From NCBI RefSeq assembly GCF_041886205.1, contig NZ_CP169029.1: a stretch of DNA of 64,000 bases; one strand, given 5' to 3'. The DNA is from Escherichia coli. GTDB lineage: Bacteria; Pseudomonadota; Gammaproteobacteria; Enterobacterales; Enterobacteriaceae. A program made the position numbers and the translations under genes. The notes beneath the pieces are model-generated. The model did no database searches, was not told the origin of the DNA, and saw nothing but the letters and a program-made list of their open reading frames with translations. This document shows positions 2,569 to 40,457 of this stretch, one piece after another (position 1 is the first letter of the stretch; every line of letters begins with the position of its first letter).

Positions 2569-2805
2569 GTTCCTGTTCTGTGCATCCCGTCACAAATTCC
2601 TCGCTTTTGTAATTCAGGCATTTAATCGCATTTTGTGAGCCTGCTCAAATCTGCCCATTTAGCCTCTCTGGCGGTAATTTACTTTACGTAAAACATGCAT
2701 ACTATGAGCACATGTTTAAATATGAACACATGTTTAAACCGTCTTTGCAGTATCTATATTCTTGTGGATTGACAGGGTTGGTAATTTTTTACCAGAGGAC
2801 GTGCT

Positions 2806-3747
2806 ATGCGCGAAAAGGATTATGTCGTCATTATAGGCTCGGCGAATATTGATGTCGCCGGATATTCACATGAATCATTAAATTATGCGGATTCAAATCC
2901 AGGTAAAATAAAATTTACGCCTGGTGGAGTCGGGCGCAATATTGCACAAAACCTGGCGTTGCTGGGGAACAAAGCCTGGCTACTGAGCGCCGTAGGCAGT
3001 GACTTTTATGGTCAATCGCTGCTAACGCAAACCAATCAATCTGGCGTTTATGTCGATAAATGCCTGATTGTGCCGGGAGAAAATACGTCTAGTTATTTAT
3101 CATTACTCGATAATACCGGTGAAATGCTGGTTGCTATAAATGACATGAATATTAGCAACGCTATTACAGCTGAATATCTCGCACAGCACCGTGAATTTAT
3201 TCAGAGGGCAAAGGTCATTGTCGCGGACTGTAATATCAGTGAAGAGGCACTGGCATGGATTCTGGATAATGCCGCCAACGTACCCGTATTTGTCGATCCG
3301 GTTTCCGCATGGAAATGTGTCAAAGTGCGCGACCGTCTAAATCAGATCCACACTCTCAAGCCAAACCGCCTTGAAGCGGAAACCCTGAGTGGGATTGCGC
3401 TGTCAGGGCGTGACGATGTGGCAAAAGTTGCTGCCTGGTTCCATCAACATGGCCTGAACCGACTGGTATTGAGCATGGGCGGCGACGGCGTTTATTACAG
3501 CGATATCAGCGGTGAAAATGGCTGGTCTGCGCCGATCAAAACCAATGTTATTAATGTTACCGGAGCGGGCGATGCCATGATGGCGGGACTTGCTTCGTGT
3601 TGGGTAGACGGAATGCCGTTTGCCGAATCTGTTCGTTTCGCACAGGGATGTTCGTCAATGGCGCTCTCCTGTGAATACACCAATAACCCCGATTTATCGA
3701 TTGCCAACGTTATATCGTTAGTGGAGAACGCAGAATGTCTGAATTAA
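2806..3747 (+). CDS. psuK: Pseudouridine kinase (PfkB family)
   Basis: 313-aa ORF starting MREKDYVVIIGSANIDV, with ribokinase-like GG and GAGD motifs; overlaps psuG by 13 nt. Confidence 0.9.
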   Translation: MREKDYVVIIGSANIDVAGYSHESLNYADSNPGKIKFTPGGVGRNIAQNLALLGNKAWLLSAVGSDFYGQSLLTQTNQSGVYVDKCLIVPGENTSSYLSLLDNTGEMLVAINDMNISNAITAEYLAQHREFIQRAKVIVADCNISEEALAWILDNAANVPVFVDPVSAWKCVKVRDRLNQIHTLKPNRLEAETLSGIALSGRDDVAKVAAWFHQHGLNRLVLSMGGDGVYYSDISGENGWSAPIKTNVINVTGAGDAMMAGLASCWVDGMPFAESVRFAQGCSSMALSCEYTNNPDLSIANVISLVENAECLN

Positions 3748-4673
3748 AAATTTCCCCTGAATTATTACAAATTTCCCCGGAAGTGCAGGACGCTTTAAAA
3801 AACAAAAAACCGGTTGTGGCGCTGGAATCGACCATTATTTCTCACGGGATGCCGTTCCCACAAAATGCCCAGACCGCAATTGAAGTAGAAGAAACTATTC
3901 GTAAACAGGGCGCTGTACCTGCCACTATCGCCATTATTGGCGGCGTGATGAAAGTGGGTTTAAGCAAAGAAGAAATTGAATTACTGGGTCGTGAAGGGCA
4001 TAACGTGACCAAAGTTAGTCGTCGCGATTTACCTTTTGTTGTTGCCGCCGGAAAAAATGGCGCAACCACTGTGGCTTCAACGATGATTATTGCGGCGCTT
4101 GCCGGAATTAAAGTATTTGCCACCGGGGGAATTGGTGGTGTGTATCGCGGGGCGGAACATACCTTCGATATTTCTGCCGATTTGCAAGAACTGGCAAATA
4201 CTAATGTCACCGTTGTTTGTGCCGGGGCGAAATCTATTCTCGATTTAGGATTAACCACTGAGTATTTAGAAACCTTCGGTGTGCCGTTAATTGGCTATCA
4301 GACTAAAGCGCTGCCTGCGTTTTTCTGCCGTACCAGCTCGTTTGACGTCAGCATTCGTCTCGACAGCGCCAGTGAAATTGCCCGTGCAATGGCGGTGAAA
4401 TGGCAAAGCGGGCTGAACGGTGGCCTCGTGGTAGCGAACCCGATCCCGGAACAGTTTGCGATGCCGGAGGAATCTATCAATGCAGCCATAGATCAAGCCG
4501 TCGCCGAAGCCGAAGAGCAGGGCGTTATTGGTAAAGAAAGTACACCGTTCCTGCTGGCGCGCGTTGCTGAACTGACCGGCGGTGACAGCCTGAAATCCAA
4601 TATCCAGCTGGTGTTCAACAACGCCATTCTGGCGAGTGAAATTGCCAAAGAATACCAGCGTCTCGCGGGTTAA
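3735..4673 (+). CDS. psuG: Pseudouridine-5'-phosphate glycosidase
   Basis: 312-aa ORF starting MSELKISPELLQISPEVQDALKN; translationally coupled to psuK. Confidence 0.9.
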   Translation: MSELKISPELLQISPEVQDALKNKKPVVALESTIISHGMPFPQNAQTAIEVEETIRKQGAVPATIAIIGGVMKVGLSKEEIELLGREGHNVTKVSRRDLPFVVAAGKNGATTVASTMIIAALAGIKVFATGGIGGVYRGAEHTFDISADLQELANTNVTVVCAGAKSILDLGLTTEYLETFGVPLIGYQTKALPAFFCRTSSFDVSIRLDSASEIARAMAVKWQSGLNGGLVVANPIPEQFAMPEESINAAIDQAVAEAEEQGVIGKESTPFLLARVAELTGGDSLKSNIQLVFNNAILASEIAKEYQRLAG

Positions 4674-4766
4674 TTTCTGACGGGCAGAAAGCCGTCGCCC
4701 GTACTCATCAAACATACCAAAACCTGGCGCTGACGCCGGGTTTACTGGCATGAAGGGAAAATCATT

Positions 4767-6017
4767 ATGGACATAATGAGAAGTGTTGTGGGGATGGTGG
4801 TGTTACTGGCAATAGCATTTCTGTTGTCAGTGAATAAAAAGAGCATCAGTTTGCGTACGGTTGGAGCCGCACTGCTGCTGCAAATCGCTATTGGTGGCAT
4901 CATGCTCTACTTCCCACCGGGAAAATGGGCAGTAGAACAGGCGGCATTAGGCGTTCATAAAGTGATGTCTTACAGTGATGCCGGTAGCGCCTTCATTTTT
5001 GGTTCGCTGGTTGGGCCGAAAATGGATGTCCTGTTTGACGGTGCGGGTTTTATCTTCGTCTTTCGCGTACTTCCGGCGATTATTTTCGTTACTGCGCTCA
5101 TCAGTCTGCTGTACTACATTGGCGTGATGGGGCTGCTGATTCGCATCCTTGGCAGCATTTTCCAGAAAGCTCTTAACATCAGCAAAATCGAATCTTTTGT
5201 CGCAGTCACAACTATTTTCCTCGGGCAAAATGAGATCCCGGCGATCGTTAAACCGTTTATCGATCGCATGAATCGCAACGAGTTGTTTACCGCAATTTGT
5301 AGCGGGATGGCGTCCATTGCTGGTTCGATGATGATTGGTTATGCCGGAATGGGCGTACCAATTGACTACCTGTTAGCGGCATCGCTGATGGCGATCCCAG
5401 GTGGTATTTTGTTTGCACGTATTCTTAGCCCGGCCACCGAGCCTTCGCAGGTCACATTTGAAAATCTGTCGTTCAGCGAAACGCCGCCAAAAAGCTTTAT
5501 CGAAGCGGCGGCGAGCGGTGCGATGACCGGGCTGAAAATCGCCGCTGGTGTAGCGACGGTGGTAATGGCGTTTGTCGCAATTATTGCGCTGATCAACGGC
5601 ATTATCGGCGGAATTGGTGGCTGGTTTGGTTTCGCCAATGCCTCTCTGGAAAGTATTTTTGGCTATGTGCTGGCACCGCTGGCGTGGATCATGGGTGTGG
5701 ACTGGAGTGATGCCAATCTTGCGGGTAGCCTGATTGGGCAGAAACTGGCGATTAACGAATTCGTCGCTTACCTGAGTTTCTCCCCATACCTGCAAACGGG
5801 CGGCACGCTGGAAGTGAAAACCATTGCGATTATCTCCTTTGCGCTTTGTGGTTTTGCTAACTTTGGTTCTATCGGTGTTGTCGTTGGCGCATTTTCGGCT
5901 ATTTCGCCAAAACGTGCTCCAGAAATCGCCCAGCTTGGTTTACGGGCGCTGGCAGCAGCAACGCTTTCCAACCTGATGAGTGCGACTATTGCCGGGTTCT
6001 TTATTGGTCTGGCGTAA
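4767..6017 (+). CDS. psuT: NupC-family nucleoside transporter (YeiM/PsuT)
   Basis: 416-aa polytopic membrane ORF; close paralog of the nupX ORF at 7957-9207. Confidence 0.9.
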   Translation: MDIMRSVVGMVVLLAIAFLLSVNKKSISLRTVGAALLLQIAIGGIMLYFPPGKWAVEQAALGVHKVMSYSDAGSAFIFGSLVGPKMDVLFDGAGFIFVFRVLPAIIFVTALISLLYYIGVMGLLIRILGSIFQKALNISKIESFVAVTTIFLGQNEIPAIVKPFIDRMNRNELFTAICSGMASIAGSMMIGYAGMGVPIDYLLAASLMAIPGGILFARILSPATEPSQVTFENLSFSETPPKSFIEAAASGAMTGLKIAAGVATVVMAFVAIIALINGIIGGIGGWFGFANASLESIFGYVLAPLAWIMGVDWSDANLAGSLIGQKLAINEFVAYLSFSPYLQTGGTLEVKTIAIISFALCGFANFGSIGVVVGAFSAISPKRAPEIAQLGLRALAAATLSNLMSATIAGFFIGLA

Positions 6018-6087: not shown

Positions 6088-6747
6088 TTACTGCATCATC
6101 CCGGAGAATTTATTCTCCGGGTCCATCTCCAGCGCCAGTCCTGACAACTGCTTTCTGTTTTTAATGAGATACCCTTTCTTGCTTTTAGTTAATAAACCGT
6201 CGTGAATGAATTGCGCGAGAACATATAAAAGATGTCGATAAGAAACGCCTAAATACTCTGCCGCTTGCGTATGCTTTTCGTGATAAAGATCACCTTCCTG
6301 CGAGAGTAATATAAAAGCTGCCAGGCGATTAACTAACGGAAATGATTGATTCTGAGTTAAAGAAACAATATTACGATAATTTTTATGACTTAAGGTGACG
6401 CAGAGTTTTCGTAAAAATAGCGTGTCGTTTAATAACAGCGGGCGGTAATGTTTCATAGAGAGCGCAAGGCACCAACACTCTTCAATAGCCTGCACCGCAC
6501 GCGGTTCATGGTCTTTGTCGATTAACTCAATCTCACCAATAAAACAGGGGGCGGCAAAGAAATCGATCAGCGACACGCGACCATTAGCAAGCGTGGCGTA
6601 AAGCCTGGCGCGGCCTCGCGTCAGATAAAACAGCCAGGACGGCTGTTGCCCTTCCTGCACAATGTAGTCACGCGCTAAAAAATGAAACAGCCGCGTATCG
6701 GCTGAAACATCCGTTAAAAAGCAATCCTTAAACGCGGATTCACTCAT
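6088..6747 (-). CDS. yeiL: CRP/FNR-family transcriptional regulator YeiL
   Basis: ORF has a cNMP-binding-like N-domain and C-terminal HTH. Start placed at the internal Met ([10 protein letters not shown]…) to give 219 aa; the ORF track extends to 6786. Confidence 0.8.
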
Positions 6748-6800
6748 CAATTGCTGCTTAAGATCATTATTGTGGATTTCTTTCACGATGTTTATCCGCT

Positions 6801-6814
6801 ATGAGATTTCTCAT
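6801..6814. promoter_or_regulatory. 14-bp palindrome ATGAG-N4-CTCAT upstream of yeiL; candidate CRP/FNR-family (FNR or YeiL) site
   Basis: atgagatttctcat read directly; TGA-N6-TCA core geometry is typical of CRP/FNR-family sites. Confidence 0.4.
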
Positions 6815-6915
6815 ATTTAGCATACGTACGCGGTTGGTAAGATTCAATCATCGGCCCGGTCGAATTTTCTTTGCTGTAGAAAAAATAACGCAACTGGAAA
6901 CAGAGGAAATAAACA

Positions 6916-7857
6916 ATGGAAAAGAGAAAAATTATTCTGGATTGTGATCCGGGTCATGATGATGCTATTGCAATGATGATGGCAGCGAAACATCCGGCAA
7001 TAGATTTATTAGGCATCACTATTGTAGCGGGTAATCAGACGCTTGATAAAACATTAATTAATGGCCTGAATGTTTGCCAGAAACTGGAGATTAATGTTCC
7101 GGTTTATGCGGGGATGCCGCAACCCATTATGCGTAAACAAATCGTTGCCGATAATATTCACGGTGAAACCGGACTGGATGGCCCGGTATTCGAGCCGCTG
7201 ACCTGCCAGGCAGAAAGTACCCACGCGGTGAAATACATCATTGATACCCTGATGGCAAGCGATGGCGATATCACTCTGGTGCCGGTTGGTCCGCTTTCAA
7301 ATATCGCGGTGGCAATGCGTATGCAACCCGCGATCCTGCCCAAAATCCGTGAAATTGTGCTAATGGGCGGCGCTTACGGTACAGGCAACTTCACGCCATC
7401 TGCCGAGTTCAACATCTTTGCTGATCCGGAAGCAGCCCGCGTGGTGTTCACCTCCGGCGTTCCATTAGTGATGATGGGCCTCGATCTCACCAACCAGACC
7501 GTTTGCACCCCGGACGTGATTGCACGGATGGAAAGGGCAGGCGGCCCTGCCGGAGAGCTGTTCAGCGACATCATGAACTTCACTCTCAAAACGCAGTTCG
7601 AAAACTACGGCCTGGCTGGCGGCCCGGTGCACGACGCCACCTGCATCGGTTATCTGATTAACCCTGATGGCATTAAAACCCAGGAGATGTACGTCGAAGT
7701 GGACGTCAACAGTGGCCCTTGCTATGGGCGTACCGTCTGCGACGAGCTGGGCGTTCTTGGCAAGCCCGCTAATACCAAAGTCGGCATCACTATTGATACC
7801 GACTGGTTCTGGGGCTTAGTCGAAGAGTGCGTGCGCGGCTACATCAAAACCCATTAA
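6916..7857 (+). CDS. rihB: Pyrimidine-specific ribonucleoside hydrolase RihB
   Basis: 313-aa ORF with the N-terminal DCDPGHDDA aspartate-cluster motif of IU-nucleoside hydrolases. Confidence 0.9.
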
Positions 7858-7956
7858 GTGTTGATAACAAGCCGGGTCAGTATCGCAAGATCCAAGCCCG
7901 GCTATTTCTGATGGGCAGAAAGCCGTCGCCCAATATGACATGAAGAGATAATAACT

Positions 7957-9207
7957 ATGGATGTCATGAGAAGTGTTCTGGGAATGGTGGTATTGCTGAC
8001 GATTGCGTTTTTGCTGTCAGTAAACAAGAAGAAGATCAGCCTGCGTACCGTTGGCGCGGCGTTAGTGTTACAGGTCGTGATTGGCGGGATTATGCTTTGG
8101 TTACCGCCAGGGCGTTGGGTCGCTGAAAAAGTCGCTTTTGGCGTGCATAAAGTGATGGCGTACAGCGACGCGGGTAGCGCATTTATCTTCGGTTCGCTGG
8201 TCGGGCCGAAAATGGACACGCTGTTTGATGGTGCAGGATTTATCTTTGGTTTCAGGGTATTACCGGCAATTATCTTCGTCACTGCACTGGTGAGTATTCT
8301 CTACTACATCGGTGTGATGGGGATTTTAATTCGCATTCTCGGCGGTATATTCCAGAAAGCATTAAATATCAGCAAGATTGAGTCATTCGTCGCGGTCACC
8401 ACCATTTTCCTCGGGCAAAACGAAATTCCGGCGATCGTCAAACCCTTTATCGATCGTCTGAATCGCAATGAATTATTTACAGCGATTTGTAGTGGCATGG
8501 CCTCGATTGCTGGTTCGACAATGATTGGTTACGCCGCCCTGGGCGTACCTGTGGAATATTTGCTGGCGGCATCGTTAATGGCGATCCCAGGCGGGATCTT
8601 GTTTGCCCGCCTGTTAAGCCCGGCTACGGAATCTTCGCAGGTTTCCTTTAATAACCTCTCTTTCACCGAAACACCGCCAAAAAGCATTATTGAAGCCGCT
8701 GCGACAGGGGCAATGACCGGGCTGAAAATCGCCGCCGGTGTAGCGACAGTTGTTATGGCATTTGTCGCCATCATTGCGTTAATTAATGGTATTATCGGCG
8801 GCGTTGGCGGCTGGTTTGGTTTTGCACATGCCTCGCTGGAGTCCATTTTAGGTTACCTGTTGGCCCCATTGGCGTGGGTGATGGGGGGTGACTGGAGTGA
8901 TGCAAATCTTGCCGGGAGTTTGATTGGGCAGAAGCTGGCGATCAATGAATTTGTCGCTTATCTCAATTTCTCGCCATATCTGCAAACGGGTGGCACTCTG
9001 GATGCTAAAACCGTGGCGATTATTTCTTTCGCGTTGTGCGGTTTCGCTAACTTTGGTTCTATCGGGGTGGTGGTGGGGGCGTTTTCTGCGGTTGCGCCAC
9101 ACCGTGCGCCGGAAATCGCCCAACTTGGTTTACGCGCGCTGGCGGCGGCGACACTTTCTAACCTGATGAGTGCTACTATTGCAGGATTCTTTATTGGTTT
9201 AGCGTAG
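7957..9207 (+). CDS. nupX: NupC-family nucleoside transporter NupX
   Basis: 416-aa ORF, about 85-90% identical to PsuT by eye across the whole length. Confidence 0.9.
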   Translation: MDVMRSVLGMVVLLTIAFLLSVNKKKISLRTVGAALVLQVVIGGIMLWLPPGRWVAEKVAFGVHKVMAYSDAGSAFIFGSLVGPKMDTLFDGAGFIFGFRVLPAIIFVTALVSILYYIGVMGILIRILGGIFQKALNISKIESFVAVTTIFLGQNEIPAIVKPFIDRLNRNELFTAICSGMASIAGSTMIGYAALGVPVEYLLAASLMAIPGGILFARLLSPATESSQVSFNNLSFTETPPKSIIEAAATGAMTGLKIAAGVATVVMAFVAIIALINGIIGGVGGWFGFAHASLESILGYLLAPLAWVMGGDWSDANLAGSLIGQKLAINEFVAYLNFSPYLQTGGTLDAKTVAIISFALCGFANFGSIGVVVGAFSAVAPHRAPEIAQLGLRALAAATLSNLMSATIAGFFIGLA

Positions 9208-9262: not shown

Positions 9263-10351
9263 TTACACCATTGGCACTAATGAAAGCGCGTTATCGGCAG
9301 ACAGGGTAGGGTTGTTTAAGCTGCCGCTGGCGCGCGAAATTGCCGCGCAGGCTACCGCAAAACGGGCGCTGTCGCGGAAACTGTATCCTTCAAGAAAGCT
9401 ATATACCAGGCCCGCCATAAAACCATCGTCAGCACCAAAACTGTCTACTGTCGTATGCGCTGGCGCGGTCAGCAAAAATTGTTCTCCATCCTTTTCGCTG
9501 CAATAAACTGACTCATCGGGCAAATAAACAAACAGTTGCTGAACACCTTGCTGATGCAATGCATTCACTGCGGCATTACGGTCAGCATCGCTGGTGATCG
9601 CCTGTCCCCATAAAATTTCCAGCTCCGGTAAAGTGGGTTTCAGGGTGTGAATATGCGCCAGCCAGTGTTTGATTTTGCCCGCTTTGAATTCTGAAACGGT
9701 ATCGACAAACACCGGGATTTCATCAGCGAGGGTAAAGACCCATTCCAGCGCCTCGGCTGTCAGGTTGCAATCAGCCAGTACCACGCCCGCATGACGAAGT
9801 AAATCGCGCGACCCGTTCAGTAGTTGCGGTGTCAACTGTTCCAGCAGATGGGTATCGTTAATCGCCAGCACGGTTTGATCGTCTCGATTGGCAATTGCCA
9901 GATACGTCGATGTGCTTTGACCATGCAAACGAACGCAGCCGGAGACATTCACGCCGGCACGGCGCGTTTCTTCCAGGAGCATTTCGCCATAAAAGTCATC
10001 GCCAATCACTGAAAGCAAATGGACGTCACGGCCTAACAGCGCCAGATTGTGGGCGATGTTGCGTCCCACGCCGCCCGCCGAGCAATGAATTGTACCGGGA
10101 TGAGAAGCCGCTTGCGGGTAACGGATATCCGCCATCCCGCGAATATCCATATTGATTGTCCCCACCACTACGCAGTATTCCTGCTCGGTGAGAATGTAAC
10201 CTTTGCCTTTAATCCGCCCTTTGCGCATTAAATCCATAATATGCGCCGCAACGCGCGAACGACTGATTTGCAGCATGTCCGCAATTTCGTTCTGCTGAAT
10301 CAGCGGGTTACGCCGTAAAATTGCAAGGATCTCCTTTTCCCGGTTATTCAT
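9263..10351 (-). CDS. yeiI: HTH-fused PfkB-family sugar/nucleoside kinase YeiI
   Basis: 362-aa ORF: N-terminal HTH (ILAILRRNPLIQQNEIADMLQISRSRVAAHI) followed by a ribokinase-like domain homologous to PsuK. Confidence 0.85.
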   Translation of the reverse strand: MNNREKEILAILRRNPLIQQNEIADMLQISRSRVAAHIMDLMRKGRIKGKGYILTEQEYCVVVGTINMDIRGMADIRYPQAASHPGTIHCSAGGVGRNIAHNLALLGRDVHLLSVIGDDFYGEMLLEETRRAGVNVSGCVRLHGQSTSTYLAIANRDDQTVLAINDTHLLEQLTPQLLNGSRDLLRHAGVVLADCNLTAEALEWVFTLADEIPVFVDTVSEFKAGKIKHWLAHIHTLKPTLPELEILWGQAITSDADRNAAVNALHQQGVQQLFVYLPDESVYCSEKDGEQFLLTAPAHTTVDSFGADDGFMAGLVYSFLEGYSFRDSARFAVACAAISRASGSLNNPTLSADNALSLVPMV

Positions 10352-39809: not shown

Positions 39810-40457
39810 ATGATGAAGCTGTACAGTTTTTTTAATAGTTCAGCATCGTACCGGGTACGCATTGCGCTGGCGCTGAAAGGCATTGATTACCATACCGAAG
39901 GGGTGAATATCCGCATTGGTCAGCAAAATGAACTGGCCTACCGGCGGATGAATCCGGTCGGGCTGGTGCCGACGCTGCTGACTGACGAGGGCGAATCACT
40001 TGGACAATCGCTGGCGATTATTGACTGGCTGGATCGTCACTACCCCCAAGTTCCGCTGATGCCGCAGGAAGAGCCGGCCCGCAACAAGGTGCTGGAAATT
40101 GTCTATGCCATCGCCTGTGATATTCATCCACTGAATAACCTGCGCGTGCTGCGCTACCTGACCGAAGAGCTGAACGTCAGTGAAGAAGATAAAAAACGCT
40201 GGTATGCGCACTGGATCCAGCAAGGGTTAAGCGCGGTGGAACAGCTGTTGCGCCAGAGCCAGTCGGGGCAATTTTGCGTGGGCGAGACGCCGACGCTGGC
40301 AGATTGCTGCCTTGTCCCGCAGTGGGCGAACGCGCTACGCATGAACTGCGATCTGAGTGGGTATCCGCGCTGCAAAGCGGTGTACGACGCCTGCACGCAG
40401 CTGCCAGCGTTCATTGCCGCAGCGCCAGAAAATCAACAAGATAAAATTTCAGCCTGA
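39810..40457 (+). CDS. Maleylpyruvate isomerase (GST zeta-class / maleylacetoacetate isomerase-like)
   Basis: 215-aa ORF with GST N-terminal thioredoxin-like fold (MKLYSFFNSSASYRVRIALALKGIDY). Confidence 0.8.
   Translation: MMKLYSFFNSSASYRVRIALALKGIDYHTEGVNIRIGQQNELAYRRMNPVGLVPTLLTDEGESLGQSLAIIDWLDRHYPQVPLMPQEEPARNKVLEIVYAIACDIHPLNNLRVLRYLTEELNVSEEDKKRWYAHWIQQGLSAVEQLLRQSQSGQFCVGETPTLADCCLVPQWANALRMNCDLSGYPRCKAVYDACTQLPAFIAAAPENQQDKISA

Follow-up and report, generated by a model that had tools for sequence, protein, structure and literature searches.

Paired dyads at the predicted psuKGT transcription start of Escherichia coli and the kinase-like protein YeiI as their probable reader

The psuKGT operon of Escherichia coli is preceded by a short tandem direct repeat, and the question raised by this locus is what the repeat represents and which protein, if any, reads it. 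In the stretch of DNA analysed here (64 kb, hereafter "the window", whose plus strand corresponds to the minus strand of K-12), a first-pass annotation had recorded a 12-mer occurring twice, each copy embedding a palindromic ACATGT core, about 70-100 bp upstream of psuK, where operators of psuKGT would be expected. The distance is correct, the psuK ATG being at position 2806. According to the data reported below, the repeat most likely represents two conserved binding sites for a repressor, located at the predicted transcription start and probably read by the kinase-like DNA-binding protein YeiI; this reading comes from sequence comparison and from the position of the sites. The features considered are listed in Table 1.

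Table 1. Coordinates of the features discussed in the text (window numbering).
Feature	Position	Strand	Description
Tandem direct repeat, 18-bp units	2703-2720 and 2721-2738	+	Units 17/18 identical, head-to-tail
Box 1	2705-2718		TGAGCA-CA-TGTTTA; imperfect YRAACA-NN-TGTTYR dyad, centre 2711.5
Box 2	2723-2736		TGAACA-CA-TGTTTA; YRAACA-NN-TGTTYR dyad, centre 2729.5
CRP-like site	2634-2649		TGTGA-N6-TCAAA; centre 2641.5, about -70.5
Putative -35	2678-2683	+	TTTACT, changed to TTGACT by the SNP at 2680; TTTAC invariant in 12 taxa
Putative -10	2700-2705	+	TACTAT, 16 bp after the -35; TAYYAT conserved at fixed spacing
Stem-loop (or dyad)	2778-2795	+	TTGGTAA-TTTT-TTACCAG, directly 5' of the Shine-Dalgarno sequence
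psuK	2806-3747	+	First gene of the operon
psuG	3735-4673	+	Operon gene
psuT	4767-6017	+	Operon gene; psuKGT spans 2806-6017
yeiI	9263-10351	-	HTH_24 winged helix (residues 1-48) plus PfkB kinase domain

The tandem repeat and its palindromic boxes

The two copies of the 12-mer CACATGTTTAAA are exact and lie at 2709-2720 and 2727-2738, as the annotation had reported; they are part of a larger head-to-tail pair of 18-bp units, TATGAGCACATGTTTAAA (2703-2720) and TATGAACACATGTTTAAA (2721-2738). The repeat is real and goes beyond chance. No further copy of CACATGTTTAAA was found in the rest of the 64-kb window with up to one mismatch allowed (the expectation from shuffled sequences, with one mismatch, being a mean of 0.30 matches); moreover, this is the sole tandem with a unit length of 12-30 and at most one mismatch across the whole window, and a period-18 tandem appeared in none of 200 first-order Markov simulations.

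The comparison between species revealed that the conserved unit is neither the direct repeat nor ACATGT, but a 14-bp palindrome, YRAACA-NN-TGTTYR, occurring twice, with 18 bp from the centre of box 1 to that of box 2. The ACATGT core is indeed present in both copies; nevertheless, it is merely a part of the larger dyad RAACA-NN-TGTTY and straddles its non-conserved centre. A motif built from 32 boxes of 16 taxa gave palindromic position counts (C5 and G10 in 32/32, A3/T12 in 30/32) with a free central dinucleotide (CA, TG, CG, and TA were all seen), as expected for the site of a dimeric protein; the boxes thus have the dyad symmetry of a repressor operator. The operator reading of the first-pass annotation is, therefore, supported by conservation, palindromy, overlap with the predicted promoter, and a linked DNA-binding paralogue of the kinase, but the functional unit would be a dyad of 12-14 bp.

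The search for PsuK in reference genomes retrieved 11 orthologous loci (Escherichia clades, E. albertii, a Raoultella MAG, five Citrobacter, and two Buttiauxella), and the 190 bp 5' of the ATG were aligned for 12 sequences. In these 12 promoters the CRP-like site, the -35 (TTTAC), the -10 (TAYYAT), and both boxes form invariant blocks without indels between them. The aligned boxes read rArCAyrTGTTy and GAACAyrTGyTy, box 1 being conserved in 12 promoters out of 12 and the core of box 2 matching at eight of eight positions. The pair is kept 5' of psuK in Escherichia, Citrobacter, Buttiauxella, Raoultella, Enterobacter, and Affinibrenneria; in the last of these the CRP-like site, TTTACT, the -10, box 1, and box 2 all recur 270 bp 5' of the annotated start. 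Furthermore, pairs of AAACA-NN-TGTTT, 18-19 bp apart, lie just upstream of the HTH-psuK/psuG operons of Yersinia, Serratia, Pasteurella, Shewanella, and Aliivibrio. The spacing of 18-19 bp is thus fixed in orthologous promoters of at least 16 taxa. Pairs 17-20 bp apart were found at all the psu promoters examined except those of Xenorhabdus and a Burkholderiaceae MAG, each with one clear box only. Away from psu promoters, 265 kb of sequence yielded a single, weak pair, inside yeiE, and shuffled windows yielded none. Candidate further members of a regulon within the 64-kb window were discarded: besides the psuK boxes, only chance matches were retrieved, inside yeiE (12656/12674) and at 40240.

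Outside Escherichia, the two 18-bp units are far less alike than the E. coli pair, which implies that the near-perfect direct repeat is a recent homogenisation in Escherichia. Within E. coli, the fruA-psuK spacer of the window is 100% identical to that of strains such as ATCC 8739 and C. The share of E. coli genomes identical to the window is 78% for the box region and 75% for a control segment of the leader; conservation of the boxes does not exceed that of the adjoining leader, and the comparison within the species is uninformative. Approximately 1,200 of 5,426 complete E. coli genomes gave no match to the spacer (2383-2805) or to a 50-bp box probe, so that in about one strain out of five the psuK promoter, and perhaps the operon as well, must be missing or highly divergent. 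In one strain, SCPM-O-B-8794 (about position 3945 of the extracted locus), 14 bp corresponding to 2741-2754 of the window, just 3' of box 2, are deleted; the deletion spares both boxes and the hairpin beside the Shine-Dalgarno sequence.

Two other sequences resembling the boxes or their halves were observed. Stand-alone dyads (e.g., CCAAACACTTGTTTGG) lie 250-285 bp 5' of HTH-psuK in Yersinia, Serratia, and Xenorhabdus (L015 5752-5765, L018 4744-4757, and L019 4715-4728); these could be distal looping operators or weak terminators of the upstream gene. In addition, within the spacer that separates the -35 from the -10, the element AAAACAYGC (2690-2698) is nearly invariant in Enterobacteriaceae and resembles a further RAACA half-site; in the alifold consensus it pairs, with Y/R covariation, to the right half of box 1.

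The psuK promoter

The position of the promoter is suggested by a substitution selected in evolution experiments. A single change in the psuK/fruA spacer, A>C at position 2257444 of NC_000913.2, was reported by several independent studies, sweeping most mouse-gut lineages and arising, under the label "psuKp", in three long-term stationary-phase populations; the authors place it in the psuK promoter region and regard it as affecting psuK expression (PMC7518454, PMC9509342, PMC7858067, PMC6731689). To convert NC_000913.2 coordinates into those of NC_000913.3, only an offset of +1978 reproduces the four srlR amino-acid changes of the same table. We take it that no indel separates the two versions between 2.26 and 2.83 Mb, so that this offset also holds at psuK. 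The substitution then falls at window position 2680, 126 bp 5' of the psuK ATG, and reads T>G on the psuK strand.

The change of TTTACT into TTGACT would be a textbook -35 up-mutation, and as such would locate the -35. The position of the -10 follows from this mutation and from conservation, and the two elements together predict a transcription start at 2711-2713, corresponding to 2,259,389-2,259,391 on the minus strand of NC_000913.3. The last base of the putative -10 is also the first of box 1, whose centre coincides with the predicted +1, while box 2 is centred at about +18, so that the boxes together span about -7 to +25. The location "upstream" of psuK given previously holds with respect to the gene, but the boxes cover the predicted start site and part of the leader rather than lying simply upstream of them. 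The putative wild-type promoter matches eight of 12 consensus positions, below the threshold of the promoter scanner, which for this reason missed it. The alternative proposed by the scanner, TTTAAA-16-TATATT (2733-2760), was rejected, as its -10 region is not conserved and its spacing would be broken by the 14-bp deletion in one E. coli strain.

The CRP-like site matches TGTGA-N6-TCACA at nine of ten positions, and its TTGTGA and TCA.ATCT are invariant in 12 taxa; it is a consensus-based candidate, whose centre lies at -70.5 only if transcription starts at 2712. Class I sites of CRP centre near -61.5, -71.5, or -82.5. The literature search retrieved no transcription start site, footprint, ChIP, or reporter data for the psuK promoter, and nothing relevant on the regulation of psuK, yeiC, yeiI, and yeiL, including CRP binding, ChIP-exo, and iModulon data.

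Under ciprofloxacin, recA mutants of several clinical E. coli strains show some of their strongest decreases in protein level for PsuG (log2 fold change down to -6) and PsuK, which group with SOS proteins (PMC11039860). No LexA box (CTGT-N8-ACAG) is evident at psuK; the recA-linked change could derive from pseudouridine freed by RNA breakdown or lysis.

Further upstream, two related hairpins were observed 3' of fruA (within 2400-2566), one at 2400-2420 (an inverted repeat recognised by eye) and the other at 2538-2561 (called as a terminator by the scanner, with a T-run). They share a 21-nt repeat with 81% identity and bracket about 120 nt, where TGAAACGTTCA (2504-2514) is, as we presume, a Cra-like half-palindrome.

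YeiI and the fused HTH-PfkB kinases

The candidate reader of the boxes is encoded a few genes away. YeiI carries a DNA-binding domain (HTH_24, E = 1e-10), and the best family matching it, besides its own model, is that of pseudouridine kinases. The yeiI gene is directly convergent to psuT in E. albertii, Citrobacter, Buttiauxella, Raoultella, Enterobacter, and Affinibrenneria, and in Affinibrenneria the yeiI-psuKGT layout is kept even though the surrounding genes are unrelated to those of E. coli. The interposition of yeiL-rihB-nupX (6088-9207) between psuT and yeiI was observed in E. coli-clade genomes only. In seven more distant taxa (Yersinia, Serratia, Xenorhabdus, Pasteurella, Shewanella, Aliivibrio, and the Burkholderiaceae MAG) the HTH-PfkB gene is itself the first gene of an HTH-psuK/psuG(/psuT) operon. 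The HTH-PfkB gene is thus linked to the operon, and co-occurs with the motif, across taxa. The E. coli yeiI gene has no boxes of its own and is apparently co-transcribed with nfo.

Moreover, the residues of the pseudouridine pocket are retained: S30, N143, K170, and D256, responsible for pseudouridine binding and catalysis in PsuK (PMC9061257), are invariant in YeiI and its homologues. The PsuK dimer changes its quaternary structure on binding pseudouridine, closing from about 65 to about 51 Å (PMC9061257). Papers of 2022 and 2025 still call YeiI uncharacterised; among HTH_24+PfkB proteins, none has a solved structure that extends to the HTH, and the literature searched gave no regulatory study of them.

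On this basis we propose, with moderate confidence, that the repeat is a pair of YRAACA-NN-TGTTYR operators placed on the psuKGT start, where YeiI would repress the operon until pseudouridine binds. The weak sigma-70 promoter of psuKGT would probably depend on CRP, which would recruit RNA polymerase; a YeiI dimer on each box, covering -7 to +25, would prevent either the formation of the open complex or promoter escape; once the kinase-like domain has taken up pseudouridine (or its phosphate), the geometry of the dimer would change and the DNA would be released. The T>G change would strengthen the -35 and, in turn, raise psuK expression.

The same evolution experiments provide the main argument against YeiI as a simple repressor. 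In the portion of their supplement available to us, the change at the psuK locus is always the single -35 SNP, classed as "adaptive loss: no", and yeiI is missing from the adaptive targets, whereas the repressors encoded by frlR, srlR, dgoR, and glpR were repeatedly inactivated. If YeiI were the main brake, the loss of yeiI would be a larger mutational target, and its absence from that portion counts against a simple repressor model. Possible explanations are that in those settings promoter strength, and not repression, is limiting, that the loss of YeiI is costly, or that YeiI is no simple repressor.

A broader proposal, which we advance more tentatively, is that HTH_24+PfkB proteins represent undescribed transcription factors derived from pseudouridine kinases, with a fused kinase acting as autorepressor, which in Enterobacteriaceae would have been split into PsuK and YeiI. 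In most Gammaproteobacteria a single protein would be both pseudouridine kinase and autorepressor, acting through YRAACA-NN-TGTTYR dyads; in the lineage of Enterobacteriaceae the bifunctional gene would have been duplicated and split, with PsuK losing the HTH and YeiI keeping both the HTH and the ligand pocket as a dedicated pseudouridine sensor, so that the E. coli repeat would be the operator of that system. YeiI shares 57-72% identity with the fused kinases in its HTH and 38-48% in its kinase domain, while E. coli PsuK is 60% identical to the Yersinia fused kinase and 38% to YeiI; these values fit the split of an ancestral bifunctional protein.

A possible trace of the lost domain was observed in front of psuK. 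Translated in frame, the sequence immediately before the psuK start codon is similar to the C-terminal portion of the winged helix of YeiI/HTH-PsuK (six of 21 residues identical, ungapped, shuffle p about 0.001) in Citrobacter braakii (L014 3938-4000) and in three other loci (L008, L012, and L013), in the region corresponding to about 2745-2805 of the window. The weak in-frame remnant was found in Citrobacter and Raoultella only, and tblastn gave nothing significant for the region 5' of E. coli psuK. This suggests that the psuK 5' UTR may be the decayed remnant of an HTH coding region.

Alternative readings and related systems

The strongest rival reading, though still an unlikely one, assigns the boxes to another factor, for example YeiL (CRP/FNR-type) or a nucleoside/sugar regulator of the DeoR/GlpR/CytR type. 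The assignment to YeiI comes, in fact, from comparison, yeiL adjoins psuT in E. coli, and the lack of yeiI hits in the available portion of the evolution data would be explained. Read in the other register, as TGTTT-N6-GAACA, the sequence resembles what we take to be DeoR-/GlpR-type operators. On the other hand, yeiL is found only at E. coli-clade loci and the boxes are conserved in taxa without yeiL at the locus, which argues against YeiL as their reader. The motif tracks the HTH-PfkB genes into Pasteurellales, Alteromonadales, and Vibrionales, with no other regulator consistently adjacent, and the recognition-helix region is common to YeiI and the fused kinases. Other known motifs were compared and discarded: a MarA/SoxS box (spacing wrong by 2 bp), a PhoP direct repeat (spacing wrong), a KdgR box, and the DeoR/GlpR-type TGTTx-N6-xAACA (partial match only).

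A role at the RNA level is improbable. According to this reading, the psuK transcript would open with an 11-bp hairpin formed by 2714-2739, which could stabilise the mRNA or affect its translation. The predicted fold of the leader (2711-2815) is indeed more stable than those of its shuffles (-29.2 kcal/mol, z = -3.2), and this hairpin is its first element; in the alignment, 81% of the cells of the helix are able to pair, and at one pair both bases change. However, three central pairs are broken in five to eight of the 12 sequences and the RNAalifold consensus lacks the helix, so that support from compensatory changes was not obtained; the pairing potential is the automatic result of two neighbouring DNA dyads, and the half-site positions are conserved rather than covarying, with uncompensated A-to-G or T-to-C changes. 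Moreover, the dyads standing alone 250-285 bp upstream in Yersinia, Serratia, and Xenorhabdus speak against an RNA element, and there was no Rfam match: a permissive scan of 2300-2900 gave only sub-threshold noise and no curated family. The best of the weak matches in the fruA-psuK spacer was DapZ, with 23 bits against a cutoff of 56. A different element of the leader, the stem-loop at 2778-2795, is conserved and pairs in 98.6% of the cells across 12 taxa, with covariation at one pair, U-A to C-G in four sequences; in Citrobacter its bases also read TGGCA-N6-TTGC, which we assume to be sigma-54-like.

It is very improbable that the repeat is a functionless tandem duplication due to replication slippage. 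In favour of this reading, the units are 17/18 alike in Escherichia and their copy number varies: E. coli KD0845 (locus L025, NZ_CM143749.1 1660609-1660951) has three 18-bp units, with an extra copy of unit 1, and the 50-bp box probe matches twice in each of eight genomes, a copy-number polymorphism presumably generated by slippage. With its near-identical head-to-tail units the Escherichia form, and only this form, is VNTR-like, a condition still compatible with an operator function. Nevertheless, the two-box layout is older than Escherichia, and the spacing of 18-19 bp is kept where the units are far less alike, which excludes a recent duplication as its origin; slippage accounts for the likeness of the E. 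coli copies, not for their existence.

Lastly, it is hardly credible that psuK translation is controlled by a small ORF, either leaderless or upstream (2712-2852, 46 codons), beginning with the ATG within box 1 (2712) since, although this ORF exists, its ATG coincides with the predicted start site, and gene calls in Yersinia and Serratia begin at the equivalent ATG, the peptide is not conserved (...CLNMNTCLNRL... in E. coli, stop codons in the same stretch in Citrobacter), the nucleotide conservation of the boxes is palindromic rather than codon-like, and for nine of ten homologues the alignment begins only at the following Met. The annotated HTH-PsuK starts of Yersinia and Serratia (MFKNKQVS.M...; L015 6001-6027 and L018 5001-5027) are probably nine codons too long, as the extension holds both boxes and the other homologues start at the second Met.

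The preferred reading, i.e., a pair of operators probably bound by YeiI, can be compared with known systems. Like lac O1 and LacI, psuK would combine a weak promoter, a candidate upstream CRP site with class I geometry, an operator dyad lying over the predicted start and the early transcribed region and, as proposed here, a repressor freed by a substrate-derived inducer. The differences are that the CRP-like site is one helical turn further upstream (about -70.5 versus -61.5), that psuK has two adjacent dyads 18 bp apart whereas lac has one main operator plus distant auxiliaries, and that the candidate protein is a winged helix joined to PfkB and not a member of the LacI family.

BlaI, MecI, and CopY are winged-helix dimers, and the promoter regions that they control often carry two dyads. 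Their operators, TACA-NN-TGTA, are also short dyads with a 2-bp centre (xACA-NN-TGTx), the core of this type being given as TACANNTGTA in PMC7253601. Unlike the proposed pseudouridine sensor, these proteins react to copper or to proteolysis and lack a kinase-like domain, and the psuK half-site is RAACA rather than TACA.

The architecture of YeiI recalls, instead, the ROK repressors NagC and Mlc, and the bifunctional enzyme-repressors BirA and NadR, in which an N-terminal (winged) HTH is fused to a metabolite-sensing domain (sugar-kinase-like or enzymatic) and paralogues acting as repressor and as enzyme are found side by side; in Yersinia, Pasteurella, and Shewanella the HTH-PsuK fusion would, as BirA does, unite enzyme and repressor in the strict sense. 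The fold differs, being PfkB (ribokinase-like) and not ROK/ASKHA or biotin ligase.

Finally, the "Cheo box" of Gram-positive LexA (GAAC-N4-GTTC) has a core identical to that of the psu boxes, and box 2 of E. albertii, CGAACATATGTTC, fits it exactly. The LexA site of E. coli is different, CTGT-N8-ACAG, and the psu boxes track HTH-PfkB genes rather than SOS genes; hence, we took the identity as a sequence coincidence.

No characterised regulator with a PfkB fold was found, and the repeat would be an ordinary type of element, an operator pair, with a probably new type of reader. For E. coli, these data offer a concrete and testable function for yeiI, one of its remaining uncharacterised putative regulators, and define a predicted promoter, a candidate operator, and a probable CRP site for the pseudouridine-catabolism operon, for which no described regulation was found in the literature. 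They also offer a mechanism, the -35 up-mutation, for a highly reproducible adaptive mutation of the mouse gut and of long-term stationary phase. The system may be of use in engineering pseudouridine production or biosensing, pseudouridine being a precursor of mRNA vaccines. If the fused HTH-kinases do autoregulate, they would represent a new class of enzyme-repressors, and PsuK and YeiI a clean case of subfunctionalisation.
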